Shown piece by piece: positions 10,154-53,706 of a stretch of 64,000 nt of DNA. Positions within the stretch are counted from its first letter, which is position 1; the number at the start of each line of letters is the position of its first letter. Below the pieces are notes generated by a model, which searched no databases, was not told the DNA's origin, and saw nothing but the letters and a program-made list of their open reading frames with translations. The DNA lies in the NCBI GenBank assembly GCA_947494715.1, contig CANLWG010000009.1, forward strand, positions 1,405-65,404, in the 5' to 3' direction. The translations under genes and the position numbers were made by a program. This stretch comes from an uncultured Flavobacteriaceae bacterium. GTDB lineage: Bacteria > Bacteroidota > Bacteroidia > Flavobacteriales > Flavobacteriaceae.

Positions 10154-10855
10154 ATGATACGTAAGACCGTTACCGATGCAAGAGAGGCTTTGCAGGGTGT
10201 AGAAGATGGAATGACCTTTATGCTTGGAGGTTTTGGCCTCTGTGGAATCCCGGAGAATGCCATTGCAGAGCTAGTACGCTTGGGGATTACTGACATTACC
10301 TGTATTTCCAATAATGCCGGCGTGGATGATTTTGGTTTGGGGCTACTTCTCCAAAAGCATCAGATAAAAAAAATGATTTCCTCCTATGTGGGAGAGAACG
10401 ATGAGTTTGAAAGACAAATGTTGAGTGGTGAACTGGAGGTAGAGCTTACCCCACAGGGAACCTTGGCGGAGAAATGCAGGGCAGCCCAAGCCGGATTCCC
10501 GGCATTCTATACTCCGGCGGGGTATGGAACCGAAGTGGCACAAGGAAAGGAAACTCGGGAATTTAACGGAAAAATGTACGTGTTGGAAGAAGCTTTTGAA
10601 GCGGATTTTGCTTTTGTAAAAGCTTGGAAAGGTGATGAGGCCGGGAACCTTATATTCAAGGGTACGGCACGTAACTTTAATCCTTGTATGTCCGGGGCGG
10701 CAAACATTACGGTAGCAGAGGTAGAGGAATTGCTTCCTGCGGGCAGCTTAGACCCCAATCAGATTCATGTTCCCGGAATATTTGTGCAACGGATATTTCA
10801 AGGAGAACATTATGAGAAGCGAATTGAACAGCGAACCGTCCTTAAGCGGACTTAA
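10154..10855 (+). CDS. scoA: 3-oxoacid CoA-transferase subunit A
   Basis: [24 protein letters not shown]. Confidence 0.95.
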
Positions 10856-10899
10856 TTTGAAGGTTGATCGATTTGAAAATTTGATGACATGAGAAATGA
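10853..10899 (+). repeat. Left array of degenerate ~8-nt repeats (ATTTGAAR-type) before four-helix-bundle gene
   Basis: atttgaag gttgatcg atttgaaa atttgatg; TGA recurs every 7-9 nt. Confidence 0.6.
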
Positions 10900-11254
10900 C
10901 AAAGACAACTTAGTTGTAAGGAAAACATTTGATTTTGCCTTGGATATTATTGATTACACAGAACAATTGAGATCTCTTCATAAATTTGAAATGTCTTCTC
11001 AACTTTTCAAAAGTGGAACATCTATTGGAGCCAACACATGGGAGGCCCAAAATGCTGAAAGTACTGCTGATTTTATCCATAAATTCAAGATTGCAGCTAA
11101 GGAGGCGGATGAAACTAAGTTTTGGGTTGAACTCTGTAAGGCTTCAAAACATTATCCTGATCCCCAGGAGACATTATTTTCTGACCTAAAATCGATAATC
11201 CGGATTATTTCCAAAATTATTGGTTCCAGTAAACATGGCCAATTTTCAAATTAG
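10889..11254 (+). CDS. Four helix bundle protein (TIGR02436/IVP-like family)
   Basis: QLFKSGTSIGANTWEAQNAESTADFIHKFKIAAKEADETKFW. Confidence 0.93.
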   Translation: MRNDKDNLVVRKTFDFALDIIDYTEQLRSLHKFEMSSQLFKSGTSIGANTWEAQNAESTADFIHKFKIAAKEADETKFWVELCKASKHYPDPQETLFSDLKSIIRIISKIIGSSKHGQFSN

Positions 11255-11277
11255 CTCACTTTCAGATTCTCAAATCA
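11241..11277 (+). repeat. Right array of degenerate ~8-nt repeats, inverted relative to left array
   Basis: aattttca aattagct cactttca gattctca; 11241-11251 is the exact reverse complement of 10871-10881. Confidence 0.6.
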
Positions 11278-11282
11278 ATACT

Positions 11283-11936
11283 ATGTTAGATAAGAACGGA
11301 ATAGCGAAACGAATAGCACAAGAAGTCAAGGATGGTTACTATGTGAACTTGGGCATTGGCATTCCGACTTTGGTAGCCAATTTTGTACGCAATGATATCA
11401 ATGTTGAATTCCAAAGTGAAAACGGCGTATTGGGGATGGGCCCTTTTCCCTATGAGGGCGAAGAAGATGCGGATATCATCAACGCCGGGAAACAGACCAT
11501 TACCACTCTGCCCGGAGCGTCTTTTTTTGATTCGGCCACCAGCTTTGGGATGATTCGTGGACAACATGTGGACCTTACTATTTTGGGTGCGATGGAAGTG
11601 GCAGAGAACGGTGATATCGCCAATTGGAAGATTCCTGGAAAAATGGTGAAAGGAATGGGTGGTGCCATGGATTTAGTAGCAAGTGCGGAAAACATCATCG
11701 TGGCAATGATGCACACCAATAAGGTAGGCAAATCCAAGCTTTTAAAACGCTGTACCCTTCCGCTTACCGGAGTGGGCTGCGTCACTAAGATAGTAACCAA
11801 CCTGGCGGTATTGGAAGTTACTTCAAAAGGATTTATGTTGCTGGAACGAGCCCCGGGAGTGAATGTGGATGATATAAAAATGGCTACCGAAGGTACTCTG
11901 GTCGTTGAAGGAAATATTCCGGAAATGGCGCTTTAA
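11283..11936 (+). CDS. scoB: 3-oxoacid CoA-transferase subunit B (start at ATG 11283)
   Basis: YVNLGIGIPT, FQSENG catalytic Glu, KGMGGAMDL. Confidence 0.95.
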   Translation: MLDKNGIAKRIAQEVKDGYYVNLGIGIPTLVANFVRNDINVEFQSENGVLGMGPFPYEGEEDADIINAGKQTITTLPGASFFDSATSFGMIRGQHVDLTILGAMEVAENGDIANWKIPGKMVKGMGGAMDLVASAENIIVAMMHTNKVGKSKLLKRCTLPLTGVGCVTKIVTNLAVLEVTSKGFMLLERAPGVNVDDIKMATEGTLVVEGNIPEMAL

Positions 11937-12067
11937 AAATTAAGCATAAGTACAAATACCAAGTTCAAGAAAAGGGCATGCTCTTTCAAAAATACCCGCT
12001 TGCCGACTCTGGATTTTCATTCTCATTTCCAATGCTCTTATAATGGCAATACAGCTCAAAGAAGCAT

Positions 12068-12163
12068 TTCATCGAAGAAAATGACCGTTCATCCTTTTCA
12101 CAACATTTTGTGAAGACTTCACAACAATAGTTTCCATTTAGCACAGCACTAAAGTACCTTTAC
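12068..12163 (+). promoter_or_regulatory. Three-box activator-type promoter
   Basis: TTCATCGA 12068-75; TTCACAAC 12097-104 and 12118-125 (21-bp period); TACCTTTAC 12155-163; same layout recurs three times at 55-61 kb. Confidence 0.7.
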
Positions 12164-12225
12164 AGAACAAATCAATTCAAAAGTTTCAGACCCCAAATCT
12201 GACTTTTTTCAAAACCCACAAATCT

Positions 12226-12333
12226 ATGGAAGCCCAAATGAACCATGCTCCGACCAAAGAAGAAATTCAAGTGTACAAAAACGATTTTTTTAGCGGTATT
12301 GTCATGTTGACCAAGAAACTATTTATGCTATAG
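12226..12333 (+). CDS. Small protein, 35 aa (MEAQMNHAPTKEEIQVYKNDFFSGIVMLTKKLFML), absent from ORF track
   Basis: ATG in A/C-rich context; own promoter upstream and terminator downstream. Confidence 0.55.
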   Translation: MEAQMNHAPTKEEIQVYKNDFFSGIVMLTKKLFML

Positions 12334-12354
12334 CATTTTGGTAAAAATTCTAAA

Positions 12355-12394
12355 AAAAGGAGCGGTATAACCTACACTGCTCCTTTTCTTTTTT
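12355..12394 (+). terminator. Rho-independent terminator
   Basis: aaaaggagcggt / actgctcctttt stem followed by T-tract. Confidence 0.75.
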
Positions 12395-12421
12395 CTAATT
12401 TTGGGTATGGGCCCAAACCAA

Positions 12422-12955
12422 ATGCATTTACTTCTTCAAAAATGCAACCAAAATGATTTGGATGAACTTGTTGAACTGTCCATAAGAACATTCAAGGATG
12501 CCTTTGAAGCGGATAACGACCCAGAAGACTTTAAAGACTACCTTCGTACTGCATTTCATAGGGATACCTTGTTGGCCGAGCTGCAGGATAAGGATGTAAG
12601 TTTCTACTTTGTTAAGGTTGATACCGAGACGGCGGGTTATTTTAAGCTGAATGAAGATTTGGCCCAGACCGAAGTAAAGTCGGGCAATAGCATCGAATTG
12701 GAACGCATCTATGTTCTAAATACCTTCCAAGGCTCAGGAATAGGCTCATGGATGCTTGACGAAATAAAGCAAATCGCTTTCGAAAAAGGAAAACAATTTC
12801 TTTGGTTGGGGGTATGGGAGAAGAATCGTAAGGCCATTAGGTTTTACCAGAGGCTGGGATTTACAAAATTCGGGATCCATCCCTATTTCATTGGAAAGGA
12901 CGAACAGACCGATTGGCTAATGCGGTTTGATTTGATTAATTTGGATCCTGAATAA
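12422..12955 (+). CDS. GNAT family N-acetyltransferase (PaiA-like)
   Basis: IELERIYV, FQGSGIG, WLGVWEKNRKAIRFYQRLGF; start likely ATG 12422. Confidence 0.92.
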   Translation: MHLLLQKCNQNDLDELVELSIRTFKDAFEADNDPEDFKDYLRTAFHRDTLLAELQDKDVSFYFVKVDTETAGYFKLNEDLAQTEVKSGNSIELERIYVLNTFQGSGIGSWMLDEIKQIAFEKGKQFLWLGVWEKNRKAIRFYQRLGFTKFGIHPYFIGKDEQTDWLMRFDLINLDPE

Positions 12956-12966
12956 ATTCTTTTGAA

Positions 12967-14121
12967 ATGAAGTATCCCATCTTGATTCTTTTTTATCTTT
13001 TTTCCTTTGGAACCCTTTTCGCCCAGAAAGACTATTATTTTCCTGAAAGAAACGAGGTATGGGAGATCAAGGCCCCAAACACTTTTGAAATCGATGAAAA
13101 GAAACTTCAAGAAGTAGTTGATTTTGCCTGGGAGAATGAATATTCGGGCTCAAGGGATCTCCGTATTGCCATTCTTAAAGGTTTTGAACGAGAACCTTTT
13201 CATGAAATTTTAGGCCCCACCAAAAAACGAGGTGGCCCTGCCGGAATGATTTTGAAAAATGGTTATATCATAGCCCATTGGGGGGACACAAAAAGGGTAG
13301 ACATGACCTTTAGCGTTACCAAGAGCTTTTTGAGTACGGTAGCGGGACTTGCGGAGGACCGCGGACTGATTGCCCAAACCAATGATAAGGTAGCGAACTA
13401 TATCTGGGATGGCACTTTTGATGGGGAACACAACGGAAAAATTACCTGGGAGCATTTGTTGCAACAGAACTCCGATTGGTCTGGCGAACTTTGGGGAGGA
13501 AAGGACTGGGCCGATCGCCCGCCTCGGGAAGGGGATTTGGATGATTGGAAATTCCGAAAGCTCAATGAACCGGGAACCGTAATGGAATACAATGATGTAC
13601 GCGTTAATGTGTTGGCCTATGCATTGACCCATGTATGGCGAAAACCCTTGCCTATGGTACTTAAGGAGAATATAATGGATAAAATAGGTGCTTCTACGAC
13701 CTGGAGATGGCATGGGTATGAGCATGCATGGACGGAAATCGATGGCGTTCGGATGAAATCGGTTACGGGGGGCGGACACTCGGGGGCAGGAATGTTTATT
13801 AGCACGGAGGATATGGCCCGGTTTGGTTTGTTGTTCCTCAATCAAGGAAAATGGGAGGATCAACAACTTATTAGCGAAGATTGGATAAAAAAGGCCATTT
13901 TACCTTCTAAACCCAATGTAAATTATGGTTATATGTGGTGGTTGAACAAAAAAGGCGATCGGCATTGGGAGGGGCTTTCCGAAGACATTTATTACGCAGC
14001 TGGCTTTGGAGGCAACTACATTGTTATTGACCGTGAGAACGATTTGGTGGTGGTAATGCGTTGGTTGGAGCCCAGTAAAATAGGAGAGTTTATGACTATG
14101 CTTAGCGCAGCCTTGAAATAG
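12967..14121 (+). CDS. Serine hydrolase, beta-lactamase/esterase family, secreted
   Basis: SVTK (SxxK), YND, AAGFGGN; signal peptide. Confidence 0.9.
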   Translation: MKYPILILFYLFSFGTLFAQKDYYFPERNEVWEIKAPNTFEIDEKKLQEVVDFAWENEYSGSRDLRIAILKGFEREPFHEILGPTKKRGGPAGMILKNGYIIAHWGDTKRVDMTFSVTKSFLSTVAGLAEDRGLIAQTNDKVANYIWDGTFDGEHNGKITWEHLLQQNSDWSGELWGGKDWADRPPREGDLDDWKFRKLNEPGTVMEYNDVRVNVLAYALTHVWRKPLPMVLKENIMDKIGASTTWRWHGYEHAWTEIDGVRMKSVTGGGHSGAGMFISTEDMARFGLLFLNQGKWEDQQLISEDWIKKAILPSKPNVNYGYMWWLNKKGDRHWEGLSEDIYYAAGFGGNYIVIDRENDLVVVMRWLEPSKIGEFMTMLSAALK

Positions 14122-14124
14122 ACC

Positions 14125-15285
14125 TTATTGAACGCGCCTTAGAATTTCGGTGGCCTTTTCTAAAGTATCTTCAGTTTTGGCAAAACAAAATCGCAACACT
14201 TTATCATCTCGGTTATTCAAATTGAAGGAGGATATTGCAATACTTGCCAATTTATAATCTATTATTAACCGTTGTGCTAGAATTTCGTCCGGTTCATTGG
14301 TTATTCCCGTATAATCCAGCAATTGAAAATAAGTGCCTTGGGAAGGTGTAAACTTAAATTTGGAATCGGAAAGCCTACTTAGGAAATAGTCCCTTTTTTG
14401 TTGATAAAAGTCCTTCAACTCTAAATAATGCCCTTCATTTTTCAAGTATTCCGCCATAGCTCGCTGCACGGGATGATCCACACAGAAAACGGCGAACTGG
14501 TGCGTCTTTCGGAATTCATGCATCAGTTCGGCTGGTGCGGCACAATAGCCCATTTTCCATCCGGTTACATGAAAAGTCTTCCCAAAAGAGGCGCAGACAA
14601 AACTACGAGAGGCCAAATCATCCAAGCGCGAAGCACTTTCATGTTCCTTTCCATCAAAAACAATATGCTCGTATACCTCATCACTGACTAAAATAATATT
14701 AGTATCCCGTAGACTTTCCTGGAGCTGCAACATATCGGTTTTGGAGAAAATACGTCCGCTGGGATTATGTGGGGTGTTGATGACCACCATCCTGGTCTTG
14801 GAGGTAATTTTAGTTCGGAATTCTTCCCAATCCACTTGATAATCCTTCTCCCTCAACTGGATAAGAACCGGGATGCCGCCGTTTACTTCAATGGCCGGCT
14901 CGTAACAATCATAGGCTGGCTTCAGTACAATGACCTCGTCACCAGGGTGGACAAATGCCGTGATTGCCGTAAAAATTGCCTGAGTGGCCCCGACGGTTAC
15001 CGTAATTTCTTTTTCGGGATCATAACTTCGGCCATGAAGTTTTTCTATTTTCTCCGATATGATTTCCCGAAGTCCATAATACCCCTGCATAGCCGCATAT
15101 TGGTTATGACCGTGTAGCATGGCATCGGATACCAAACCCATTAACTTTCTATCGGCTTCAAAATTGGGAAATCCCTGGGAAAGGTCAATGGCCTTATGTT
15201 TTCTGGCCAGATTGCCTACGGTAGTGAAAATGGTAGTCTTTGCATGGGGGAGTTTGGAGGGGATATTAGTCTTAAAAATTGCCAT
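14125..15285 (-). CDS. PLP-dependent class I aminotransferase (YbdL/methionine aminotransferase-like)
   Basis: DLSQGFPNF, NTPHNPSG, SDEVYEH, SFGKTFHVTGWKMGY; start likely ATG 15285. Confidence 0.93.
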   Translation of the reverse strand: MAIFKTNIPSKLPHAKTTIFTTVGNLARKHKAIDLSQGFPNFEADRKLMGLVSDAMLHGHNQYAAMQGYYGLREIISEKIEKLHGRSYDPEKEITVTVGATQAIFTAITAFVHPGDEVIVLKPAYDCYEPAIEVNGGIPVLIQLREKDYQVDWEEFRTKITSKTRMVVINTPHNPSGRIFSKTDMLQLQESLRDTNIILVSDEVYEHIVFDGKEHESASRLDDLASRSFVCASFGKTFHVTGWKMGYCAAPAELMHEFRKTHQFAVFCVDHPVQRAMAEYLKNEGHYLELKDFYQQKRDYFLSRLSDSKFKFTPSQGTYFQLLDYTGITNEPDEILAQRLIIDYKLASIAISSFNLNNRDDKVLRFCFAKTEDTLEKATEILRRVQ

Positions 15286-15348
15286 GGACACGAGTATTGC
15301 CTTAAAAATAGGCAATTTAGTACTTACTACTTCTGTGAAAAGAGATCT

Positions 15349-15630
15349 TTACTTTGAAGTTTGTAAAAATTTATGCAGGTAGTGCTTGTCTCCCTCTGCC
15401 AAAAGCTGTCTTGCCAAAGAATTGTCAAAGGCGATCCGTAGAAGCTCTTCAATTGCCCTGGAATTTGATTTTGTAAGACTGTTGGTTCTATAAATTACGT
15501 CTCTAATGGTTGAAAAACTTACACCGGTAGCTGTAGCCACATTGGCAAAATCGTCTTTGGTAGTGTTTCTTCTTAATGTCAGTGATAATTTCTCATTAAT
15601 CGGTTTTCCGTAATCCTGGTCCGTAAACAT
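15349..15630 (-). CDS. Small HTH protein, Cro-like
   Basis: ANVATATGVSFSTIRDVI helix-turn-helix pattern; divergent from S24 repressor. Confidence 0.65.
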   Translation of the reverse strand: MFTDQDYGKPINEKLSLTLRRNTTKDDFANVATATGVSFSTIRDVIYRTNSLTKSNSRAIEELLRIAFDNSLARQLLAEGDKHYLHKFLQTSK

Positions 15631-15755
15631 GGGTTGCACTGTATTAGGGGGTTAATTAAACTTATTGTATTGCGATACGTTGATTCTTTTCCAATTATAT
15701 TCCAAAGTCATAGCCTAAGCATTGTATAGTCCTGTTACGTATTTTGCTATATTTG

Positions 15756-15822
15756 TTTGTAAACGATATACAAATAATGCAACATAATTGCGTTTTTCGA
15801 CAAAATATGTAGGATTATTACA
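15756..15822. promoter_or_regulatory. Three operator-like palindromes TGYA-N7-TRCR
   Basis: TTTGTA-aacgata-TACAAA 15756-74; TGCA-acataat-TGCG 15778-92; TGTA-ggattat-TACA 15808-22; TATATTTG -7 element at 15748-55. Confidence 0.6.
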
Positions 15823-15837
15823 CAATAATACGAACTT

Positions 15838-16554: not shown

Positions 16555-16624
16555 AAGGAGATCGACCAAGTTTTTAATTTTTTATTGATATGGACTTTAT
16601 ATCTTCCATGAAAAGAGGGAAGGG

Positions 16625-17107: not shown

Positions 17108-17235
17108 GGTTTAAAGGTACCAAAAGTGTTTTGGAAAGGAAAGAATCCGTAAAATTTAACGAATCTTGCTACATTTAAAACTGCTCGATTTTCTCTGGTA
17201 GAAACCCTTATTTTTAGAAGATAATTTATTGGGGT

Positions 17236-18162: not shown

Positions 18163-18167
18163 AAGAA

Positions 18168-18207: not shown

Positions 18208-18224
18208 GAAATTTATCGAAGCTT

Positions 18225-18971: not shown

Positions 18972-19045
18972 AACTACTTAGTTATTCGTCTTGTATCGCT
19001 TGTTGTTAGCAAAGATTTGGTGCACCTTTAACCAACAATCATCGA

Positions 19046-22876: not shown

Positions 22877-22955
22877 ATGGGTTGTATCTAGAGATTTTCG
22901 AACTGTTCGAAAGTTATGTGGAAATTAAAAACCGGGTCGATTTGATAATTTTGAA

Positions 22956-23004
22956 CCAAAATCCAAAATCCAAAATCCAAAACCTGAAACTTGGAACCTG
23001 AAAC
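22956..23004 (+). repeat. Tandem heptad array (7 x 7 nt)
   Basis: ccaaaat ccaaaat ccaaaat ccaaaac ctgaaac ttggaac ctgaaac. Confidence 0.85.
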
Positions 23005-23962
23005 TAACAAAACAATAACCATAGGCGGTGAGACCGTTGTTCCCGGGGAGAGCAAACTTTTAAGAATACGTATTGATCGACTGCCCACTGGAACCCTGAT
23101 CGATATTCCCATATATGTCTTCAATGCCAAAAAACCTGGCCCTGTGCTGTTGGTACAAGCTGGGCTCCATGGAGATGAAATCAATGGTATTGAAATTGTT
23201 AGGCGAATGCTTAAGCAGAAGGAGCTTAAAGTCAAAAAGGGTGCGGTCATCGCCGTACCTATTCTCAACATTTTTGGTTTCATCCATTTTTCCAGGGATG
23301 TTCCGGATGGAAAGGATGTAAACCGAAGCTTTCCAGGAACAAAAACAGGATCAATGGCCAGTAGGATAGCCTATCATTATGTCACTGAGATTATGAACCA
23401 AATGGATTTTGCCATAGACCTCCATACTGGAGGTGCCCAACGGCACAATTTCCCACAGATCCGATTTACCGAAGAGGATGAAAAAAGCAAAGGTTTAGCA
23501 GAGATCTTTAATGCGCCCATTTCTTTTGCGTCACGATTGATCAAAGGGTCGTTTCGAAATGCCGCTTATCGTATGGGGAAACCTACCATTGTTTTTGAGG
23601 CCGGGGAAAGTATGCGTTTTGATGATTATGCTATTTTGGAAGGTATGCAGGGCATCTTAAATGTGTTAAAATACTTCGGGATGATAACCAAAAAAGACCC
23701 CCTCTTTGTGGAACGCAAGGAAACCATTTTTCTTAAGGACCGAAAATGGCTGAGAGCACCCACGGCCGGAATGTTCATTCCGGAGATTGTCAATGGTAGT
23801 GAGTTGAAAATGGGACAATTAATGGGAATCGTAACGGATACCTATGCCAAACATACGAAGCGGATAAAGGCCCCTTTTGATGGATATGTCATTAGCGTTA
23901 ATCATCAGGCAGTGGTCAATCAAGGCGATGCCTTGTTTCATTTGGGGAAAGAAATTTCCTAA
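22991..23962 (+). CDS. Succinylglutamate desuccinylase/aspartoacylase family protein (M14-like), TTG start
   Basis: GLHGDEING, DVNRSFPG, IDLHTGG, FEAG; in-frame TGA at 22985 limits the start. Confidence 0.9.
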   Translation: MEPETNKTITIGGETVVPGESKLLRIRIDRLPTGTLIDIPIYVFNAKKPGPVLLVQAGLHGDEINGIEIVRRMLKQKELKVKKGAVIAVPILNIFGFIHFSRDVPDGKDVNRSFPGTKTGSMASRIAYHYVTEIMNQMDFAIDLHTGGAQRHNFPQIRFTEEDEKSKGLAEIFNAPISFASRLIKGSFRNAAYRMGKPTIVFEAGESMRFDDYAILEGMQGILNVLKYFGMITKKDPLFVERKETIFLKDRKWLRAPTAGMFIPEIVNGSELKMGQLMGIVTDTYAKHTKRIKAPFDGYVISVNHQAVVNQGDALFHLGKEIS

Positions 23963-46178: not shown

Positions 46179-46209
46179 TTTAACTATTTAGAATAAATCC
46201 AATTAAGAT

Positions 46210-46539: not shown

Positions 46540-46594
46540 TTTGAAGATAGGATGATTTTCGAACGGACACCCCTAAACTAACTAATCGAAAAAA

Positions 46595-48040
46595 ATGGCA
46601 TATACTGAAGAGGAATTAAAAAAAGAACTGGAGACCAAGGAATATGAGTATGGTTTCTATACCGATATCGAGTCGGATACCCTTCCCAAAGGACTCAGCG
46701 AGGAAATCGTAATAGCCATTTCCAAGAAAAAGGAAGAACCTGACTGGATGACACAATGGCGCTTGGAATCCTACCGGTATTGGAAGGAGATGGCAGAACC
46801 GGAATGGGCCAATATTCGTTACAAGAAACCAGAATTTCAGGATATATCCTATTATTCGGCACCCAACAAAAAGCCCAAATACGAGAGTTTGGACGAGGTA
46901 GATCCCGAATTGTTGGAGACCTTCAAAAAATTGGGGATTTCCCTTGACGAACAAAAAAAGTTGGCAGGAGTTGCGGTGGATATCGTTATGGACTCCGTTT
47001 CTGTGGCCACTACCTTTAAAAAGACCCTGGCAGAAAAGGGGATTATTTTTTGTTCCATTTCAGAGGCCATACAGGAACATCCGGAACTGGTCAAAAAATA
47101 TATAGGCTCTGTTGTTCCACAAAAAGACAATTTTTATGCCGCTTTGAATTCGGCGGTATTCTCGGATGGGAGTTTCTGCTACATACCCAAAGGGGTAAGA
47201 TGCCCAATGGAGCTCTCCACATACTTTCGGATAAATCAGGCTGGTACAGGCCAGTTTGAGCGAACATTGGTCATAGCCGATGAAGGTAGTTACGTGAGTT
47301 ATCTAGAAGGGTGTACGGCCCCCTCACGTGACGAAAATCAATTGCATGCAGCCGTAGTGGAGCTTGTGGCATTGGACAATGCCGAAATAAAATACTCAAC
47401 GGTACAAAACTGGTTTCCCGGGGATAAGGAAGGCAAAGGAGGTGTTTATAATTTTGTAACCAAACGGGGAATATGTGAGAAAAACGCAAAAATTTCTTGG
47501 ACCCAGGTAGAAACAGGCTCGGCCATAACTTGGAAGTATCCTTCCTGTATTTTAAAGGGGGACAATTCCATTGGGGAATTCTATTCCATCGCCGTTACCA
47601 ACAACTTTCAACAAGCGGATACAGGAACTAAAATGGTGCATTTGGGCAAAAATACCCGAAGTACTATTATATCCAAAGGTATTTCCGCCGGACACTCCCA
47701 GAACAGCTATAGGGGTTTGGTACAGGTAAATAGCAGAGCGGAAAATGCTCGAAATTTTTCGCAGTGTGATTCCCTTTTGATGGGCAACGAATGTGGTGCG
47801 CATACTTTTCCCTATATCGAGGCCAAGAATAAATCAGCGCAGATAGAGCATGAGGCCACGACAAGTAAAATTGGTGAAGATCAAATCTTTTATTGCAACC
47901 AACGGGGAATAGATACCGAGAAGGCCATCGCCCTTATTGTAAATGGTTTCAGTAAGGAGGTATTGAACAAGTTACCTATGGAGTTTGCCGTTGAGGCCCA
48001 AAAATTGTTGGAGATAAGTTTAGAAGGTTCGGTTGGCTAG
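46595..48040 (+). CDS. sufB: Fe-S cluster assembly protein SufB
   Basis: [32 protein letters not shown]. Confidence 0.98.
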
Positions 48041-48053
48041 TAAGACTGGCGAT

Positions 48054-48932
48054 ATGAAAAGAATAGTACTTGTTATAGTTTCGATTTTTGTGGTCTTTTC
48101 ATGTAAAGACCACAAAAAGGAAATGGCTCATACAGATTCATCTGGTACTGAAACCCAAAGACCGGAAATAAAGCTTTATGTTTTTGATGGAGGTACCGTA
48201 CAGGTAAATAAATTGGGACTTTTTTCACAAGATGATACCTATGAAGGACAAAATGCTGAGTTCGCGGATGCCTTTTATGTCATCAGTCATCCAGATGGTA
48301 ATTTAATGTGGGATGCAGGATTGCCTGAAAATCTTGTAGGGCTTACAGAACCCTACACCTCTCCGGACGGGGCATTTACCGTCTCCAGAAAAGACTCCGT
48401 GATCAATCAGCTAAAGCGTATTGGTTTAGCCCCGGCAGATTTCAAATATATTGCACTGTCCCATACCCACTTTGATCACAGTGGACATGCCAATGTTTTT
48501 AAGGAAGCAACATGGTTGGTCCAAGAAGAGGAATATGATTTTATAACCAGTAAGGAAACCCGGAAAAATAATCCGGATAGCTACAATGCCATCAAGGAAT
48601 TGACTCGTATTAAAAAGCTTAAAGGTGATTTTGATGTATTTGGGGATGGCAGTGTAATCCTAAAGTTTATGCCGGGTCATACCCCGGGCCATCAGATATT
48701 GTTTGTGGACTTAAAGGGCCATGGCCCTCTACTTTTGACGGGAGACCTATATCATTTTTCCGATAATAGAAAGTTTAGGCGAGTCCCTATTTTCAATTAT
48801 GATATATCCAAGACCAGGGCCAGTATGGATGCTTTTGAGGCGTTTGCGAAGGAGAAAAAGGCCAAGGTGTATTTACAACATTCCAAAGAAGATTTTAATG
48901 AGATGCCCAAGGCACCAGAATATTTAAAATAA
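48054..48932 (+). CDS. Metallo-beta-lactamase-fold N-acyl homoserine lactonase family lipoprotein
   Basis: HTHFDHSGH (HxHxDH), GHTPGH, TGDLYH; signal ending FSC; start ATG 48054. Confidence 0.85.
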   Translation: MKRIVLVIVSIFVVFSCKDHKKEMAHTDSSGTETQRPEIKLYVFDGGTVQVNKLGLFSQDDTYEGQNAEFADAFYVISHPDGNLMWDAGLPENLVGLTEPYTSPDGAFTVSRKDSVINQLKRIGLAPADFKYIALSHTHFDHSGHANVFKEATWLVQEEEYDFITSKETRKNNPDSYNAIKELTRIKKLKGDFDVFGDGSVILKFMPGHTPGHQILFVDLKGHGPLLLTGDLYHFSDNRKFRRVPIFNYDISKTRASMDAFEAFAKEKKAKVYLQHSKEDFNEMPKAPEYLK

Positions 48933-48944
48933 ATAGAAACAACT

Positions 48945-49697
48945 ATGCTAAAGATAGATAACCTGCATGCAGGTGTAGAAGGAAATGAAATATTGAACGG
49001 CATCAACCTCGAGGTAAAAGCAGGGGAAGTACATGCCATTATGGGTCCTAACGGTTCCGGTAAGAGTACCTTGGCGGCGGTGATTGCCGGTAAAGAAGAA
49101 TTTGAGGTTACCGAAGGCACCGTAGTTTTGAATGGAGAGGATTTGGAAGAGTCGGCTCCGGAAGAGCGTGCCCATAAGGGAATTTTCCTTTCTTTTCAAT
49201 ATCCTGTGGAGATTCCAGGGGTAACCGTGACCAACTTTATGAAAACAGCTATCAACGAATCCAGAAAAGCAAAAGGCTTGGAGGATATGCCCGCCAATCA
49301 GATGCTGAAATTGATTCGGGAGAAATCCGAACTTCTGGATATTAATCGAAAGTTTTTATCCAGATCGTTGAACGAAGGTTTCTCCGGAGGCGAAAAAAAG
49401 AGGAACGAGATCTTTCAAATGGCTATGTTGGAGCCTAAATTGGCCATTTTGGACGAAACTGATTCCGGTTTGGACATTGATGCGCTTCGTATCGTGGCCA
49501 ATGGTGTCAATAAACTGAAAAGCAAGGACAATGCCGTTATCATAATTACCCATTACCAGCGTTTGTTGGAGTATATAGTGCCGGATTATGTCCATGTGCT
49601 ACACGAAGGAAAAATTGTAAAATCCGGTAGCAAGGAACTGGCCTTCGAGTTGGAGGAAAAAGGGTATGACTGGATCAAAAATGAAGCGGTTGTTTAA
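48945..49697 (+). CDS. sufC: Fe-S cluster assembly ATPase SufC
   Basis: GPNGSGKS, FSGGEKKRNE, LDETDSGLD. Confidence 0.98.
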   Translation: MLKIDNLHAGVEGNEILNGINLEVKAGEVHAIMGPNGSGKSTLAAVIAGKEEFEVTEGTVVLNGEDLEESAPEERAHKGIFLSFQYPVEIPGVTVTNFMKTAINESRKAKGLEDMPANQMLKLIREKSELLDINRKFLSRSLNEGFSGGEKKRNEIFQMAMLEPKLAILDETDSGLDIDALRIVANGVNKLKSKDNAVIIITHYQRLLEYIVPDYVHVLHEGKIVKSGSKELAFELEEKGYDWIKNEAVV

Positions 49698-49730
49698 TTG
49701 ATAATCCGTAAGGAGTCGGCTGGAATCAGA

Positions 49731-49765
49731 TACTGCTTACCGAATACTATCTACTGAAGACTAAA
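49731..49765 (+). repeat. Tandem heptad array (5 x 7 nt) upstream of sufD
   Basis: tactgct taccgaa tactatc tactgaa gactaaa. Confidence 0.65.
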
Positions 49766-49768
49766 AAA

Positions 49769-51085
49769 ATGGATTTAAAAGATAAACTTATATCATCCTT
49801 TATGGCTTTCGAGAGCAATGTGGATATTGATCACCCTGTTCATGATGTTCGTGTTGAGGCGATGAAGAATTTTGAGATGAAGGGATTCCCGAACAAAAAG
49901 CTGGAAGCTTGGAAATATACTTCGTTGAACAGTTTGCAAAAGGTAGACTTTAGTATTTTTCCCAAGGAAGTCAATGCCTTGGAATATAAGGATGTTAAAA
50001 AGTATTTCCTACACGAAATGGACACCTACAAAATAGTATTTGTAGATGGCATTTATAGTTCTTTTTTATCCGAAACAACACATGACGGCGTGGATATTTG
50101 TTTGATGAGCTCGGCCCTTACCAAACCCATGTACAAGCCCGTAATCGATGTATACTTCAACAAGGTGGCGTCCAACGACGAATCCTTGACTACTTTGAAT
50201 ACTGCGTTCAGTAGAGAAGGGGCCTATATTTATATTCCAAAGAACAAAATGCCCAAAAAACCAGTAGAAATTGTGCATTTTGCCACTGGAAACGAAGCAT
50301 CCTTGATGTTACAGCCACGTAATTTGATCGTTGTGGAAGAGAATGCGGAATTACAGATTATAGAGAGGCATCAGAGCTTAACGAGCAATGAGGTGTTGAC
50401 CAATTGCGTAACGGAAATCTATGCGGCCACCAACGCTATTGTGGATTACTACAAAGTCCAGAACGATACGGCTTCCTCTTCGTTGATAGATAATACGTAT
50501 ATCAATCAGAAAAACAAAAGTGTAGTCAAGGTACATACCTTTGCCTTTGGGGGAAAGTTAACAAGGAACAATCTCAACTTCTATCAAAATGGGGAGTATA
50601 TAGACTCTACCATGAAAGGGGTTACCATATTGGGGGAGAAACAGCATGTGGACCACCATACATTGGTACATCATATAGAGCCGAATTGCGAAAGTCATCA
50701 AGACTATAAAGGTATTTATGGGGAAAACTCAACCGGAGTATTCAACGGAAAGATTATCGTGGACAAGGTGGCCCAAAAGACGAATGCCTTTCAACAGAAC
50801 AATAATATCCTGATTAGCGATAAGGCGACGATAAATACAAAACCCCAGTTGGAAATCTTTGCGGACGACGTAAAATGTTCCCATGGCTGTACCATTGGCC
50901 AGTTGGATGAAGAGGCCCTTTTTTATCTACAATCCAGGGGCATTCCCAAAAAAGAAGCCAGGGCACTGCTTATGTATGCTTTTGCCAATAATGTTTTGGA
51001 AAGTGTACGGATTCCTGAACTAAAGACAAGGATTAATAAACTGATTGCCAAAAAGTTGGGGGTTAGTTTGGGATTTGATTTGTAA
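49769..51085 (+). CDS. sufD: Fe-S cluster assembly protein SufD
   Basis: EAWKYTSL, TKPQLEIFADDVKCSHGCTIG. Confidence 0.97.
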   Translation: MDLKDKLISSFMAFESNVDIDHPVHDVRVEAMKNFEMKGFPNKKLEAWKYTSLNSLQKVDFSIFPKEVNALEYKDVKKYFLHEMDTYKIVFVDGIYSSFLSETTHDGVDICLMSSALTKPMYKPVIDVYFNKVASNDESLTTLNTAFSREGAYIYIPKNKMPKKPVEIVHFATGNEASLMLQPRNLIVVEENAELQIIERHQSLTSNEVLTNCVTEIYAATNAIVDYYKVQNDTASSSLIDNTYINQKNKSVVKVHTFAFGGKLTRNNLNFYQNGEYIDSTMKGVTILGEKQHVDHHTLVHHIEPNCESHQDYKGIYGENSTGVFNGKIIVDKVAQKTNAFQQNNNILISDKATINTKPQLEIFADDVKCSHGCTIGQLDEEALFYLQSRGIPKKEARALLMYAFANNVLESVRIPELKTRINKLIAKKLGVSLGFDL

Positions 51086-51209
51086 ATATTGGTTGGTCCA
51101 GGGTCCTTACTAGTATAAGGATGATGTAGGTTTCCTCTCGTAGAGCATGAAATGAGTAATGTTTGCAACCCATGTTAATCGTATTAGTTACAAAAAATTT
51201 AATTTAGAT

Positions 51210-52436
51210 ATGCTGCGGACCTCATTGGATGTACAGACCATTAGGAAAGACTTTCCTATCCTAGACAGAAAAGTCAATGGAAGACCTTTGGTTTATTTGG
51301 ATAATGCCGCTACCTCGCAGACCCCACAACAGGTAATCGATGTTATTGTAGATTATTATAGTAACTACAATGCCAACATTCATAGAGGGGTACATGCGTT
51401 GTCACAAGAAGCTACGGACAAGTATGAAGAGGCCCGGAAAAAGATTCAGGAACATTTCAATATCGCCAAGTCCCACGAAATTATTTTTACTTCTGGAACC
51501 ACTCATGCCATAAATCTCGTAGCCAATGGTTTTTCTTCCTTTTTAAAACAGGGGGATGAAATACTGGTCTCGGCCATGGAACATCATTCCAATATAGTGC
51601 CGTGGCAAATGCTCGCCGAAAGAACGGGAGCGATTCTTAAGGTAATCCCCATGAGCCTGGATGGGGAATTGGAAATGGATGCATACGAAGAATTGCTTTC
51701 GGACAAGACCAAGCTTGTTTTTTGTAATCACGTTTCCAACGCCTTGGGAACCATCAACCCCATTCAGGAAATTATTGATAAGGCACACGAGATTGGCGCG
51801 GCGGTTTTGATCGACGGCGCTCAGGCGGCCCCTCATATTAAAGCAGATCTTAAAGCATTGAATGTGGATTTCTATACGGTTTCCGCCCATAAGATGTGTG
51901 GGCCAACGGGGGTTGGCATGCTGTACGGAAAAGAAGAATGGCTCAATACACTACCTCCGTATCAGGGCGGTGGGGAAATGATAGCCGAAGTTACCTTTGA
52001 AAAGACCACATATGCGGATCTGCCCCATAAATTCGAGGCCGGTACGCCCAACATTTGTGGCGGAATAGCTTTTGGAGCAGCCTTGGATTACATGAACGCC
52101 ATTGGTTTTGAGTCCATGGCCAAGTATGAAAAAGAGCTATTGGATTACGCTACCAAGAGATTGTCGGAAATCGACGGACTTAAAATTTATGGCACTGCAA
52201 AAAACAAGACTTCCGTAATTTCCTTTAATATTGAGGGTATCCATCCGTACGACATAGGAACAATCTTGGACAAACTGGGTATAGCCGTCCGTACGGGTCA
52301 TCACTGTGCCCAACCTATAATGGACTTTTATAAAATCCCCGGGACGGTACGTGCCAGTTTTAGTTTTTATAATACCAAGGAAGAAGTTGATATTTTGGTA
52401 GAAGGTGTACAACGGGCTAAATCCATGTTACTATAA
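51210..52436 (+). CDS. sufS: Cysteine desulfurase SufS (start ATG 51210)
   Basis: YLDNAATSQ, SAHKMCGPTG, RTGHHCAQP. Confidence 0.97.
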   Translation: MLRTSLDVQTIRKDFPILDRKVNGRPLVYLDNAATSQTPQQVIDVIVDYYSNYNANIHRGVHALSQEATDKYEEARKKIQEHFNIAKSHEIIFTSGTTHAINLVANGFSSFLKQGDEILVSAMEHHSNIVPWQMLAERTGAILKVIPMSLDGELEMDAYEELLSDKTKLVFCNHVSNALGTINPIQEIIDKAHEIGAAVLIDGAQAAPHIKADLKALNVDFYTVSAHKMCGPTGVGMLYGKEEWLNTLPPYQGGGEMIAEVTFEKTTYADLPHKFEAGTPNICGGIAFGAALDYMNAIGFESMAKYEKELLDYATKRLSEIDGLKIYGTAKNKTSVISFNIEGIHPYDIGTILDKLGIAVRTGHHCAQPIMDFYKIPGTVRASFSFYNTKEEVDILVEGVQRAKSMLL

Positions 52437-52510
52437 ACAAGCCAAGTTATCATTCTCTTAAATTGTTGATAACCATCGATTCTTGTTGTATTTTTACCGA
52501 AAATCAATAT

Positions 52511-52933
52511 ATGACCATTGAAGAAATTCAGGAGGAAATTGTGGACGAGTTCTCCATGTTCGATGATTGGATGCAACGGTACGAATACATGATAGAATTG
52601 GGAAAGTCACTTCCTCTGATAAATGAAAAATATAAGACTGAGGATAACATAATAAAAGGCTGCCAGAGTAAGGTCTGGGTACACGCCGAGTTGGAGGATG
52701 ATAAATTGGTGTTCACCGCGGATAGCGATGCTATTATTACCAAGGGTATCATAGCTATTTTGATACGGTCATTCAGTAACCAAAGACCGCAGGATATTAT
52801 TAATGCAGATACAGATTTTATTGATGAAATAGGTCTTAAAGAGCATTTATCGCCCACACGTGCCAATGGACTGGTCAGCATGATCAAGCAGTTAAAATTG
52901 TATGCGGTGGCCTATCAAACACAATTAAACTAG
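52511..52933 (+). CDS. sufE: SufE sulfur acceptor (start ATG 52511)
   Basis: IKGCQSKVW, DSDAIITKG, LSPTRANG. Confidence 0.96.
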   Translation: MTIEEIQEEIVDEFSMFDDWMQRYEYMIELGKSLPLINEKYKTEDNIIKGCQSKVWVHAELEDDKLVFTADSDAIITKGIIAILIRSFSNQRPQDIINADTDFIDEIGLKEHLSPTRANGLVSMIKQLKLYAVAYQTQLN

Positions 52934-52938
52934 GAAAA

Positions 52939-53271
52939 ATGAGCGAGGAAATAACTAAAATAGATACCCAAGAATTAGGGGAGAAAATAGTAAAGGTGCT
53001 AAAGACCATTTACGATCCCGAAATCCCGGTTGATATTTATGAACTGGGCTTAATATACGACGTTTTCGTAAACGAGGACAATGAGGTAAAGATCTTAATG
53101 ACCTTGACATCGCCTAACTGTCCAGTGGCTGAAACCTTACCTGTTGAAGTAGAGGAAAAGGTGAAGTCCTTGGATATGGTAAGAGACGCGGAGGTAGAAA
53201 TCACCTTTGACCCGCCTTGGACCCAAGATCTGATGAGCGAAGAAGCCAAGTTGGAATTGGGGTTGTTATAG
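52939..53271 (+). CDS. SUF system Fe-S assembly protein (PaaD/SufT-like, DUF59)
   Basis: IYDPEIPVDIYELGLIY, MTLTSPNCP, FDPPW. Confidence 0.93.
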   Translation: MSEEITKIDTQELGEKIVKVLKTIYDPEIPVDIYELGLIYDVFVNEDNEVKILMTLTSPNCPVAETLPVEVEEKVKSLDMVRDAEVEITFDPPWTQDLMSEEAKLELGLL

Positions 53272-53299
53272 ATTTCAGATGTGGGATATCAGATGTCAG
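53272..53299 (+). repeat. Left heptad array (4 x 7 nt)
   Basis: atttcag atgtggg atatcag atgtcag. Confidence 0.75.
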
Positions 53300-53654
53300 G
53301 TGATAAGGGATTTGAACAAATAATTTCATGGAGGAAAGCGAGAGAGCTGAATAAGGAGATTTATCGCTTGACCAAAGATTCTAAATTTTCAAAAGACTTT
53401 GCCCTAAGAGACCAGATAAGAAGAGCATCAATATCTATTTCTTCAAACATAGCCGAAGGATTTGGAAGAAAATCGAATAAGGAATTTATATATTTTTTGA
53501 ATGTCGCCCAAGCTTCATGTTACGAAGTAAAATCTCAATTATATTTGGCTTTGGATATTGAGTATATTATGGAATCTGAATTTAGTGACTCATTTGCGAT
53601 GAAATATCCAAAACAATTTTTGGACTAATAAAACATCTTGAGAAAAAGCAATAA
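53293..53654 (+). pseudogene. Four helix bundle protein with a frameshift near 53597
   Basis: LRDQIRRASISISSNIAEGFGRKSNKEFIYFLNVAQASCYEVKSQL; family-like C-terminus DEISKTIFGLIKHLEKKQ* lies in a shifted frame (53598-53654); ORF as read stops at 53628. Confidence 0.8.
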
Positions 53655-53671
53655 TGCTCTATGTACTAAAC

Positions 53672-53706
53672 CCGATCACTTAAATCTGAAATCTTATGTC
53701 TGAAAT
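53672..53706 (+). repeat. Right heptad array (5 x 7 nt), inverted relative to left array; contains the next gene's ATG
   Basis: ccgatca cttaaat ctgaaat cttatgt ctgaaat; ctgaaat is the reverse complement of atttcag. Confidence 0.75.

Follow-up and report, generated by a model that had tools for sequence, protein, structure and literature searches.

The window analysed here is a stretch of 64,000 nt from the genome of an Ulvibacterium-type flavobacterium (contig CANLWG010000009.1). Two of its junctions of co-transcribed housekeeping genes, scoA|scoB and sufT-like|DUF2480, hold a small open reading frame (ORF) enclosed by periodic arrays, referred to here as arms (Table 1). In cassette 1, the left arm begins at the scoA stop codon and runs to the ATG of the cassette, and the right arm overlaps the stop codon of the ORF and runs to the scoB ATG. 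Arm positions 10854-10881 and 11241-11268 are 71% complementary over 28 nt, and a second register of 18 nt is 83% complementary. The ORF scored 73.7 bits against PF05635 (E 1.7e-20, cut-off 33.8) and 88.1 bits against TIGR02436 (E 4e-25, cut-off 24), and its product shows 92.6% amino acid identity to the orthologue in genome G004, with a dN/dS of 0.07. In cassette 2, the left arm begins one base past the upstream stop codon and includes the cassette ATG at 53293, and the right arm includes the DUF2480 ATG at 53696. These arms (53272-53299 and 53679-53706) are 75% complementary over 28 nt, with a perfect 11-nt core and a 7/14-nt periodicity. Here, the ORF reached 114.2 bits for PF05635 (E 4e-33, cut-off 33.8), in an alignment covering only profile positions 2-92 of 106, and 108.4 bits for TIGR02436 (cut-off 24). 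Since a 7-nt deletion has frameshifted its C-terminus with respect to the copies of genomes G003 and G006, the ORF of cassette 2 is probably decaying. In the predicted MFE and centroid RNA folds of both cassettes, an arm-arm stem encloses the entire ORF; the fold energies of the whole cassettes were unremarkable (z of 0.18 for cassette 1 and -1.61 for cassette 2).

Table 1. Coordinates of the cassettes, their neighbouring genes and related sites in the window.
Feature	Position	Strand	Description
scoA-like CoA-transferase subunit A	10154..10855	+	PF01144, E 2e-74; gene 5' of cassette 1
Cassette 1 left arm	10854..10888	+	TTTGAA / TTTGAAAATTTGA units; inverted repeats I1, I2, I5
Cassette 1 ORF	10889..11254	+	121 aa, four-helix-bundle protein, PF05635/TIGR02436
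Cassette 1 right arm	11241..11285	+	TTTTCAAAT / TCTCAAATCAA; pairs with left arm in the predicted folds
scoB-like CoA-transferase subunit B	11286..11936	+	PF01144, E 2e-47; gene 3' of cassette 1
Arms-only hairpin	18972..19045	-	Junction with full PF05635 cassette in G006 and G003 (L219, L224)
rimK|deacylase insert	22877..23014	+	138 nt, heptamer array, no cargo gene
sufA|sufB spacer	46540..46594	+	Empty allele; PF05635 cassette there in congener G003
sufC|sufD spacer	49698..49768	+	Empty allele; cassette with CCTGAAAC-type arms in congener G005 (L231)
sufT-like FeS_assembly_P gene	52939..53271	+	PF01883; gene 5' of cassette 2
Cassette 2 left arm	53272..53299	+	ATTTCAG/ATGTGGG/ATATCAG/ATGTCAG units
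Cassette 2 ORF	53293..53628 (alternative start 53281)	+	PF05635
Cassette 2 right arm	53679..53706	+	Two 14-nt units, CTTAAATCTGAAAT and CTTATGTCTGAAAT
DUF2480 gene	53696..54199	+	PF10652, E 1e-77; gene 3' of cassette 2

The same genome carries PF05635 cassettes scattered singly over 10 operons, and all ten genes share their orientation with both neighbouring genes, compared to a baseline of 22% for small genes (p = 3e-7). The spacers around them measure 21-82 nt on the 5' side and 31-69 nt on the 3' side and are filled by the arms all the way from the preceding stop codon to the following start codon. Cassettes were found even between subunits of one enzyme (scoA/scoB, leuC/leuD, fadB/fadA, imuB/dnaE2). 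The original prediction, made from the sequence of the window, had proposed two occupied sites of one recurrent system that is inserted in sense at operon junctions, with arrays abutting the upstream stop and/or the downstream start. All of this was borne out, the two sites each consisting of a PF05635 gene between 28-nt inverted periodic arms. The ten copies of this genome all show the layout of ORF and inverted arms, as does the majority of cassettes in two wider sets, 28 from other Flavobacteriales and 73 from many phyla. Convincing arms were lacking in about one quarter of the sampled cassettes, and in one of them (L094) the arrays are direct, not inverted.

Arm sequences differ from copy to copy, yet the two arms of a copy complement each other. 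For 38 cassettes, the duplex of cognate arms had an energy of -22.2 kcal/mol versus -14.7 kcal/mol for non-cognate arms (permutation p < 1e-4). Self-match at a lag of 7 nt was 0.46 in arms versus 0.30 in 1049 control spacers, and 7 was the best lag in 26 of the 38 left and 21 of the 38 right arms, versus 14% of controls. A period of 7 was also obtained in 42 and 44 of 73 arms of the cross-phylum set. Mismatches within the arms showed no excess of G:U over A:C (40 vs 31, p = 0.34). Because there is no such excess of sense-strand wobble pairs, complementarity could be maintained by slippage or template switching at the DNA level instead of by selection on RNA.

The cargo is always a gene for a PF05635 four-helix-bundle protein, of the family named after the 23S rRNA intervening-sequence protein, and not an arbitrary one. 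Relatives of the cassette proteins in the PDB, identified as sequence matches, are 2GSC (E 1.5e-14 for the cassette 2 protein) and 2RLD, both pentameric structures. The dN/dS values of 0.07-0.15 clearly place the ORF under purifying selection, and the paralogues of this genome share 16-35% identity. In the ten copies of this genome, S45 never varies, and N49 and E52 are nearly invariant. The conserved motif of the family is R-x3-S-x3-N-x2-E (Lin 2006; Zhang 2013, PMC3936711); the corresponding stretch of cassette 2, RASISISSNIAE, fits it, and in that of cassette 1, KSGTSIGANTWE, K replaces R. No description of the class outside rRNA was found in the searchable literature.

Besides the occupied sites, rimK|deacylase, sufC|sufD and perhaps sufA|sufB had been predicted as empty-looking ones. 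The two suf junctions are indeed occupied in congeners: the flanks of locus L226 map to sufA|sufB, where the insert of G003 measures 436 nt. However, the spacers of the genome under study contain no arrays, with no significant fold at sufA|sufB and a weak, non-significant hairpin at sufC|sufD (z -1.56). At rimK|deacylase, a heptamer array is present (CCAAAAT three times, followed by CCAAAAC/CTGAAAC/TTGGAAC/CTGAAAC), but the insert is cargo-less, making the site at most a candidate empty one, and none of the sampled relatives has a PF05635 gene at this junction. The insert is strain-specific, being missing in G001, G003, G004 and G006, where the genes abut or overlap, and apart from short array matches it has no second copy in the genome. 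An arms-only hairpin on the minus strand (18972..19045), absent from the predicted list, has arm words resembling those of the G006 and G003 cassettes at the same junction and folds with a z of -2.75, 3 of 200 shuffles folding equally well. Cassettes decay to such arms-only hairpins and to remnants; a remnant was found at fadA|fadE, and elsewhere the ORFs have acquired stop codons and frameshifts, pseudogenes being frequent.

At sufT|DUF2480, this genome, G006 and G003 have a PF05635 cassette and G001, G004 and G005 have arrays without cargo; most other genera show a gap of 2-60 nt. Likewise, the scoA-scoB gap is just 2-30 nt in many other genera, where the junction is empty. Comparison of orthologous junctions, proposed with the original prediction, has thus yielded pairs of occupied and empty alleles, so the distribution of the cassettes is not purely vertical. 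Whole cassettes including their arms differ among congeners at three junctions (scoA|scoB, x|hemW and ffh|folD), with related 'FEVSKKFP'-type cassettes taking the place of two different residents. In eight of nine comparisons between close relatives, the cassette was less diverged than its flanks. At fadB|fadA, the cassette differs from that of G003 by about 1.6% and the flanks by 11%, and the borders of the low-divergence tract lie no more than 10 nt (left side) and 37 nt (right side) from those of the cassette. At scoA|scoB of G003 and G006, the values were 3.0% and 10.6% (p = 8e-9), and four more comparisons gave p values from 6e-5 to 0.014. The reverse case was sufT|DUF2480 in this genome versus G006, with 4.7% in the cassette and 1.5% in the flanks. 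In agreement with the majority, dS was 0.07-0.50 for cassette ORFs versus 0.42-0.96 for scoB. Because cassettes are less diverged than flanks in eight of nine cases, we read the low divergence as recent horizontal exchange. The comparisons with sister species indicate that cassettes come and go, replace one another and are exchanged, each time as a whole unit. Cassette proteins group by junction across genera, and therefore much of the inheritance is vertical. We found no near-identical copies at different loci, no target-site duplication at pairs of occupied and empty sites and no terminal inverted repeat shared among copies. Since near-identical copies, target-site duplications and an adjoining recombinase are all missing, transposition to new sites was not directly observed.

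As predicted, the ORF list of the interval contains no transposase, and no transposase, integrase, recombinase or reverse transcriptase of diversity-generating retroelements (DGRs) adjoins any copy. The prediction had suggested searching for co-occurring nucleases or reverse transcriptases; no partner enzyme of any kind was found next to the copies. The single reverse transcriptase of the genome is that of a type III-A retron, which has WH and PRTase partners and is located on contig C6 far from every PF05635 gene, and no DGR template/variable repeat pair accompanies the cassettes. One Y1 (HUH) transposase gene is encoded in the genome, but Y1_Tnp is absent from 18 of 37 PF05635-carrying genomes, among them G003, G005, G006 and G030 with 11-12 PF05635 copies each. 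A transposon or MITE with terminal inverted repeats does not fit the copy-specific arms, the 16-35% identity of the paralogues, the lack of target-site duplications and the patchy occurrence of Y1_Tnp. The element had been called non-autonomous, which is unproven because the four-helix-bundle protein may be its own factor. As a whole, the original interpretation is partly supported.

S23p proteins are encoded by 23S rRNA intervening sequences (IVS) of Leptospira, Brucella and Xanthomonas. In Coxiella burnetii, the IVS in helix 45 of 23S rRNA contains an S23p ORF within a 28-bp terminal stem, tandem GACAGAT heptamers of variable copy number lie 5' of the ORF, RNase III cleaves in the stem and the ORF is decaying (PMC4990558). 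The cassettes match this module of ORF-bearing 23S rRNA IVS, their nearest counterpart so far described: a PF05635 gene is enclosed by a terminal stem of about 28 bp, tandem heptamers directly precede the ORF start, the ORF is prone to decay and no recombinase is carried. In contrast to the rRNA IVS of helices 25 and 45, they are located at operon junctions of mRNAs (no Rfam match was obtained in the window), their arms abut a stop and a start codon, and their ORF is clearly under purifying selection. Other known systems share single traits. PF05635 is the commonest Pfam family among DGR neighbours, and a structural alignment links 2GSC to Avd (4DWL) (PMC10053308); the cassette protein belongs to a four-helix-bundle family homologous to Avd, but neither a reverse transcriptase nor a template/variable repeat adjoins the cassettes. 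Heptamer arrays are abundant in Flavobacteriia and cyanobacteria (PMC4679880). Like the heptamer long simple sequence repeats, cyanobacterial STRR and TAACTGA repeats, the arms are intergenic, have a period of 7, often lie by start codons and are transcribed with operons, but the published arrays are described as direct repeats lacking a protein partner, whereas the cassette arrays form inverted complementary pairs around one family. With homing elements (group I introns and inteins carrying homing endonuclease genes) and integron cassettes they have in common that a promoterless ORF always occupies one given position within conserved genes or operons, that there are both occupied and empty alleles, that the insert is younger than its flanks and shows short co-conversion-like tracts, and that, as in attC, boundaries are set by structure and not by sequence. 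They differ in having no detectable endonuclease or integrase domain and no splicing chemistry, and, unlike integron cassettes, which have a single attC 3' of the ORF and are stacked at attI beside intI, they bear arms on both sides and are singly dispersed.

We therefore consider it probable that these are cassettes of the intervening-sequence type, consisting of a promoterless PF05635 (S23p/Avd-like) gene between mutually complementary arrays of about 7-nt units at junctions of housekeeping cistrons. Arms and ORF would move horizontally as one copied unit between corresponding junctions of related genomes, whether by a homing-like route or by short-tract recombination. In the transcript, base pairing of the arms is predicted to give a stem some 25-30 bp long, which may be cut by RNase III, encoded in this genome by rnc, as in rRNA IVS; alternatively, the stem might couple translation of both flanking cistrons across the insert. 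Either cutting or coupling would make the insertion tolerable, and the four-helix-bundle protein would be the only factor that the element encodes. Excision by RNase III has been demonstrated for rRNA IVS and is, by analogy, a candidate for the mRNA cassettes. The predicted hairpinning of the cargo out of the mRNA by the arms, which would limit polarity, fits this precedent (PMC4990558) and the predicted folds, but the lack of a G:U excess over A:C among the arm mismatches counts against it.

Several features could also be reconciled with a hairpin element acting at the DNA level, modelled on integron attC, IS200/IS605 ends and REP/RAYT, whose single-stranded or cruciform arms would be recognised in trans by a structure-specific recombinase, RNA pairing being a by-product. 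As in attC, arm sequences vary while structure is kept, G:U is not favoured over A:C in mismatches, the low-divergence tract stops sharply near the arm borders and there is one Y1 transposase gene in the genome. We find this explanation unlikely given the patchy Y1_Tnp, missing even from genomes with 11-12 copies, the lack of an adjoining integrase or transposase, arms that bracket an ORF instead of forming one recombination site, and a strict sense orientation that a DNA-only mechanism would not need. The grouping of the proteins by junction across genera, the purifying selection, the old age of all within-genome paralogues (16-35% identity) and the fact that no mobilising enzyme was found would be expected of a vertically inherited host module. 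This would comprise a small protein with an ordinary accessory or regulatory role and a stem serving as host regulatory structure, distributed by ancient insertions, many deletions and ordinary homologous recombination between strains, with no element-specific mobility. Such a module is likewise improbable, since three independent junctions show a cassette divergence 2-7 times below that of the highly constrained flanks, low-divergence tracts end at cassette borders, unrelated cassettes with their arms occupy the same junction in congeners, pseudogenes are frequent and the same module lies inside rRNA genes of unrelated phyla (PMC4990558).

Coincidence, with slippage producing heptamer arrays in many spacers where small genes then acquire them, appears very improbable and is already disfavoured. 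It could draw on the 37 strict period-7 arrays of the genome, versus 0-7 each for periods 5, 6, 8, 9 and 10, of which 36 are intergenic and most lie far from PF05635 genes. Arrays also occur 5' of non-PF05635 genes at sufT|DUF2480 in other genera (L024, L027), and heptamer arrays had already been described in Flavobacteria and cyanobacteria (PMC4679880). However, the arms are inverted, cognate-specific pairs around one family, 55-68% of arms versus 14% of control spacers have their best lag at 7, and the layout persists where general heptamer arrays are not typical, both in other phyla and in the rRNA IVS of Coxiella. Cassettes of the intervening-sequence type being the preferred reading, a less likely possibility that goes further is that they are minimal autonomous homing-type elements, whose four-helix-bundle pentamer would recognise its own heptamer hairpin as RNA or single-stranded DNA and promote copying of arms and ORF into the same conserved junction, in DNA that is incoming or already resident. 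If true, the target junction would be either a boundary between cistrons of an operon or a helix of rRNA, 23S rRNA IVS would merely be copies that landed in rRNA, and the surplus of heptamer arrays and of hairpins consisting of arms only, seen in Bacteroidota, cyanobacteria and other groups, would be debris of the life cycle.

To our knowledge, rRNA intervening sequences have lacked an explanation for over 30 years, the large PF05635/TIGR02436 family has no known function, Avd of DGRs being its one characterised relative, and the origin of heptamer arrays in bacteria has not been established. Should ordinary operon junctions be colonised by the same module, rRNA IVS, PF05635 and heptamer arrays would become one testable system. 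A cassette younger than its flanks, with a tract ending at the arms, predicts homing-like conversion. For genome annotation, the finding would explain the 'four helix bundle protein' genes that split conserved operons, as well as the arms-only hairpins and cargo-less heptamer arrays at the same junctions.

Between housekeeping genes of the window, two ORFs bracketed by inverted repeats had been predicted, and both were recovered as PF05635 genes (23S rRNA intervening-sequence protein), with E values of 1.7e-20 for cassette 1, at the scoA/scoB junction, and 4e-33 for cassette 2, at sufT/DUF2480. By cassette we mean a PF05635 ORF lying between two mutually complementary arms, inverted runs with a periodicity of about 7 nt. 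Both proteins also belong to TIGR02436 ('four helix bundle protein'), that of cassette 2 matches by sequence the pentameric structures 2GSC and 2RLD, and neither matched any defence-system model in PADLOC. An 'Ulvibacterium sp.' protein is among the members of the 90% cluster to which the cassette 1 protein belongs. In both cassettes, the left arm begins at the stop codon of the upstream gene or one base past it, and the downstream start codon is located inside the right arm or at its end. When the whole cassettes were folded as RNA, a closing stem between the arms appeared in the MFE and centroid structures of both, with total fold energies that were not unusual. An Rfam search of the whole window gave no match and no rRNA.

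Positions of the cassettes and of other features mentioned in the text (window positions, unless a contig, C, of the same genome is indicated)
Feature	Position	Description
Cassette 1 ORF	10889-11254	between CoA-transferase subunit genes scoA (10154-10855) and scoB (11286-11936), co-oriented
Cassette 1 arms	10854-10881 / 11241-11268	imperfect 28-nt inverted repeats, 71% complementary
Cassette 2 ORF	53281/53293-53628	between sufT-like FeS_assembly_P gene (52939-53271) and DUF2480 (53696-54199), co-oriented
Cassette 2 arms	53272-53299 / 53679-53706	imperfect 28-nt inverted repeats, 75% complementary, 7/14-nt periodicity
7-nt loss in cassette 2	53590-53600	compared with L012 and L013
DUF2480 first codons	53696-53710	compared with L014-L016
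Arms-only remnant	18972-19045 (minus strand)	74-nt spacer between two minus-strand genes
Metallo-beta-lactamase-fold gene	48055-48932	sufB/sufC, 12-14-nt spacers
fadA/fadE remnant	C1:672066-672255	188 nt
Empty junctions	C1:864644-864670; C3:238394-238433	
Type III-A retron	C6:141863-142429 (L235)	RT, winged-helix and PRTase genes
Perfect 11-12-unit heptamer arrays	C1:1077303-1077379; C6:1-89; C8:1-84; C18:123930-124013; C25:1-77; C30:1-77	examples at contig ends

The same layout was found throughout this Flavobacteriaceae draft genome (5.97 Mb). All ten of its PF05635 genes lie in the sense orientation with a co-oriented gene on either side, upstream spacers measuring 21-82 nt and downstream spacers 31-69 nt (n=10), against a baseline of 22% for small genes of this genome with such a layout (p = 3e-7). 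Several junctions separate the genes for partner subunits of a single enzyme or complex (scoA/scoB, leuC/leuD, fadB-like/thiolase, imuB/dnaE2), and the remaining ones include ffh/folD, x/hisF and x/hemW; these gene names were read from the translated flanks and Pfam-checked for the sco and suf genes only. Arm sequences are copy-specific yet complementary across both sides, as in the pairs GAACAAT/ATTGTTC, AAAATTG/CAATTTT and TCAAGGT/ACCTTGA of this genome. In a set of 38 cassettes, comprising these ten and 28 from other Flavobacteriales genera, the mean arm duplex reached -22.2 kcal/mol for cognate versus -14.7 kcal/mol for non-cognate pairs (permutation p < 1e-4), and the cognate pair ranked first in 12 cassettes, where 1 was expected. 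Self-match at lag 7 was 0.465 in left arms and 0.462 in right arms compared to 0.30 in control spacers (n=1049), 7 being the best lag in 26/38 left arms, 21/38 right arms and 14% of the control spacers. For 73 further cassettes from Acidobacteriota, Planctomycetota, Verrucomicrobiota, Chloroflexota, Gemmatimonadota, Actinomycetota, Desulfobacterota, CPR groups and others, the means were -25.3 (cognate) versus -15.5 kcal/mol (non-cognate), and 7 was the best lag for 42 of the left arms and 44 of the right arms. The related-locus search was built on a subset of four paralogue sequences, the alignment of all ten being too divergent. A common heptamer word was rejected: AGC/GCT/TAG showed no more than weak enrichment (z 4-6), and the units differ widely. 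The arms-plus-ORF layout is genome-wide and phylum-wide and not due to chance, and the recurrent cassette system of the original prediction is thereby borne out. An exception to the hairpin rule is locus L094 of genome G015 (listed with L098 of G033), where GGCAGTG-type arrays occur in direct orientation, scoring -64.6 kcal/mol as direct versus -23.5 kcal/mol as inverted repeats.

Occupancy of the junctions differs among relatives, which include the congeners G001, G003, G004, G005 and G006. When 23 cassettes of congeners were mapped onto this genome, two junctions were pristine-empty here and occupied in relatives. Concerning the sites that had been considered empty-looking, sufA/sufB is occupied in G003 and sufC/sufD in G005, whereas rimK/deacylase instead holds a strain-specific array insert of 138 nt, the two genes abutting or overlapping in four congeners. 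At this last junction, G005 (L105) carries a different insert of 191 nt, in which a heptamer-like run on the left (ATTTTGA/ATTGAAG) is accompanied by an ORF of 40 codons that is not related to PF05635.

At sufT/DUF2480, one cassette is common to this genome, G006 and G003, each copy bearing its own damage: a 7-nt deletion frameshifts the C-terminus here, G006 shows two in-frame stops and G003 an N-terminal stop. The missing unit, TTTGCGA, is kept in G006 and G003, and its loss alters the frame of the last helix; thus, the indel within the ORF is likewise heptameric. In G001, G004 and G005, the junction consists of 107-127-nt spacers with cargo-less heptamer arrays (e.g. TTGGAAT x5), most other genera have a gap of 2-60 nt, and some contain unrelated genes, two of them with heptamer arrays in front. 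Of these non-PF05635 genes, one codes for an XRE-HTH membrane protein and the other for a 114-aa protein whose function is unknown (L024 of G014, L027 of G031), and the arrays ahead of them (CAGTnnn; GTGTTCA x8) lack a complementary downstream array. The DUF2480 start, ATGTCTGAAAT, recurs in the right arm of cassette 2. Depending on the state of the junction, DUF2480 begins with MSEIV, where its ATG comes from the right arm, or with MKLKEEPIV, in the congeners with cargo-less arrays. G035, a genus with an empty site, has the MSEIV start without a cassette, its start sequence being identical to the arm unit of cassette 2; either an excision footprint or a target-derived arm might account for this. 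Different cassettes at one junction have different arms, so that arms travel with the cassette, and an origin of the arms from the target site is disfavoured.

The scoA/scoB gap measures 2-30 nt in many genera. This genome and G004 have a cassette lineage in common, of which three other genera hold partly decayed copies; the cassettes of G003, G006, G001 and G005 belong to a sister lineage that differs in its arms and reaches only 51-60% protein identity. Whole cassettes, including arms, were found replaced at x/hemW (this genome and G001 versus G006, G003 and G004) and at ffh/folD (this genome, G003 and G004 versus G006), the replacing alleles at both being related 'FEVSKKFP'-type cassettes. 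Several relatives have full cassettes at both fadB/fadA and fadA/fadE of one operon; in this genome, fadA/fadE retains a remnant in which the two arms survive, together with ~18 codons (about 55 nt) from the 3' end of a PF05635 ORF. A minus-strand spacer in the window, which forms a significant hairpin (z -2.75) and whose arm words resemble the full PF05635 cassette of G006 and G003 at that junction, is an arms-only remnant that the original prediction had not listed. Another kind of passenger in the suf operon is the metallo-beta-lactamase-fold gene, which has a lipoprotein-like signal peptide and no repeat arms. Strict period-7 arrays number 37 in this genome (0-7 for each neighbouring period), 36 of them intergenic. 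Perfect arrays of 11-12 units were observed at contig ends, so the true arrays are probably longer and break the assembly.

In the protein tree, cassettes cluster by junction across genera and the two scoA/scoB lineages are sisters, which indicates that much of the inheritance is vertical. The fadB/fadA and adjacent fadA/fadE cassettes form a single clade, suggestive of an ancient move to the neighbouring junction within the operon; within one such operon, the two copies are ~57% identical, too old to define the ends of the element. The cassette ORF is under purifying selection (dN/dS 0.07-0.15).

Divergence of cassettes and their flanks in pairs of genomes
Junction	Pair	Cassette	Flanks	p
fadB/fadA	this genome vs G003	about 1.6% (8 differences)	about 11%	
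scoA/scoB	G003 vs G006	3.0%	10.6%	8e-9
scoA/scoB	G003 vs G001	7.7%	13.6%	3e-4
scoA/scoB	G006 vs G001	7.7%	14.4%	6e-5
scoA/scoB	this genome vs G004	9.3%	14.8%	0.002
sufT/DUF2480	this genome vs G003	5.9%	9.7%	0.014
sufT/DUF2480	G006 vs G003	5.1%	9.9%	0.001
fadB/fadA (eighth comparison, sliding windows; same trend)	this genome vs G004	3-10%	mostly 10-17%	

The flanks are strongly constrained, yet the cassette is systematically less diverged, the sole exception being the decaying sufT/DUF2480 copy of this genome versus G006 (cassette 4.7%, flanks 1.5%). In the fadB/fadA comparison with G003, the low-divergence tract starts at most 10 nt ahead of the fadB stop and ends at most 37 nt inside fadA. 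In the pairs for which both were calculated, dS was 0.07-0.50 for the cassette ORF versus 0.42-0.96 for scoB. Extreme synonymous constraint on the cassette might also produce such low values, but this seems unlikely. The lower divergence of the cassette rather suggests that the cassette unit was recently exchanged horizontally between same junctions. Together with the occupied and empty junctions and the whole-cassette replacements, this agrees with the earlier claim that the distribution is not purely vertical. The original interpretation of the system is thus supported in part, the proposed looping-out of the cargo at the RNA level being hypothetical.

The unit would spread via homing-like or short-tract recombination using the conserved flanking genes. 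Neither near-identical cassette copies nor target-site duplications were found among the paralogues of this genome and the occupied/empty pairs. MITE-like repetition was rejected, since the 138-nt rimK insert is single in the genome and the paralogous cassettes are without exception old. This genome has one copy of a Y1/HUH transposase; as an obligatory trans-acting partner, it was rejected because it is absent from 18 of 37 cassette-carrying genomes, many of them cassette-rich, and genome size confounds its statistical association with cassettes. The DGR accessory protein Avd likewise belongs to PF05635 (PMC10053308); in contrast to that system, the only reverse transcriptase here is that of a type III-A retron, which lies on a different contig, unlinked to any PF05635 gene, and the co-occurring reverse transcriptase that had been sought as a partner was discarded. 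No candidate mobilising enzyme emerged from the Y1 transposase and RT surveys.

In the transcript, the arms are predicted to pair into a stem of ~25-30 bp. RNase III, whose gene rnc is encoded in the genome, might cut this stem, by analogy with rRNA intervening sequences. Alternatively, the stem might mediate long-range translational coupling of the flanking cistrons across the insert: with its base at the upstream stop codon and the downstream start codon in its 3' strand, a ribosome terminating upstream would open it and free that start codon. Arm mismatches, used as a wobble test for RNA-level selection, included 40 G:U versus 31 A:C, a difference that is not significant and speaks neither for nor against an RNA role; in view of this lack of a sense-strand wobble signature, a DNA-level role of the arms is also possible. 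A search of sequencing runs for RNA-seq from this strain or from the relative G055 yielded low-share metatranscriptomes only.

Heptamer arrays are already known from Flavobacteriia and cyanobacteria (PMC4679880), and PF05635 genes have been noted within cas operons (PMC3936711); no description of an arms-plus-ORF cassette at operon junctions was found in our literature search. The closest described case is the 23S rRNA intervening sequence of Coxiella burnetii, which is the same module: 428 nt enclosing an S23p (PF05635) ORF under ongoing reductive evolution, with a 28-bp terminal inverted-repeat stem cleaved within by RNase III and, just 5' of the ORF start, GACAGAT heptamers in tandem whose copy number varies (PMC4990558). 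Unlike it, the cassettes described here reside in mRNA and not in rRNA. They are a class of IVS-type elements outside rRNA, whose cargo is specifically a PF05635 gene, by virtue of which they may be autonomous.
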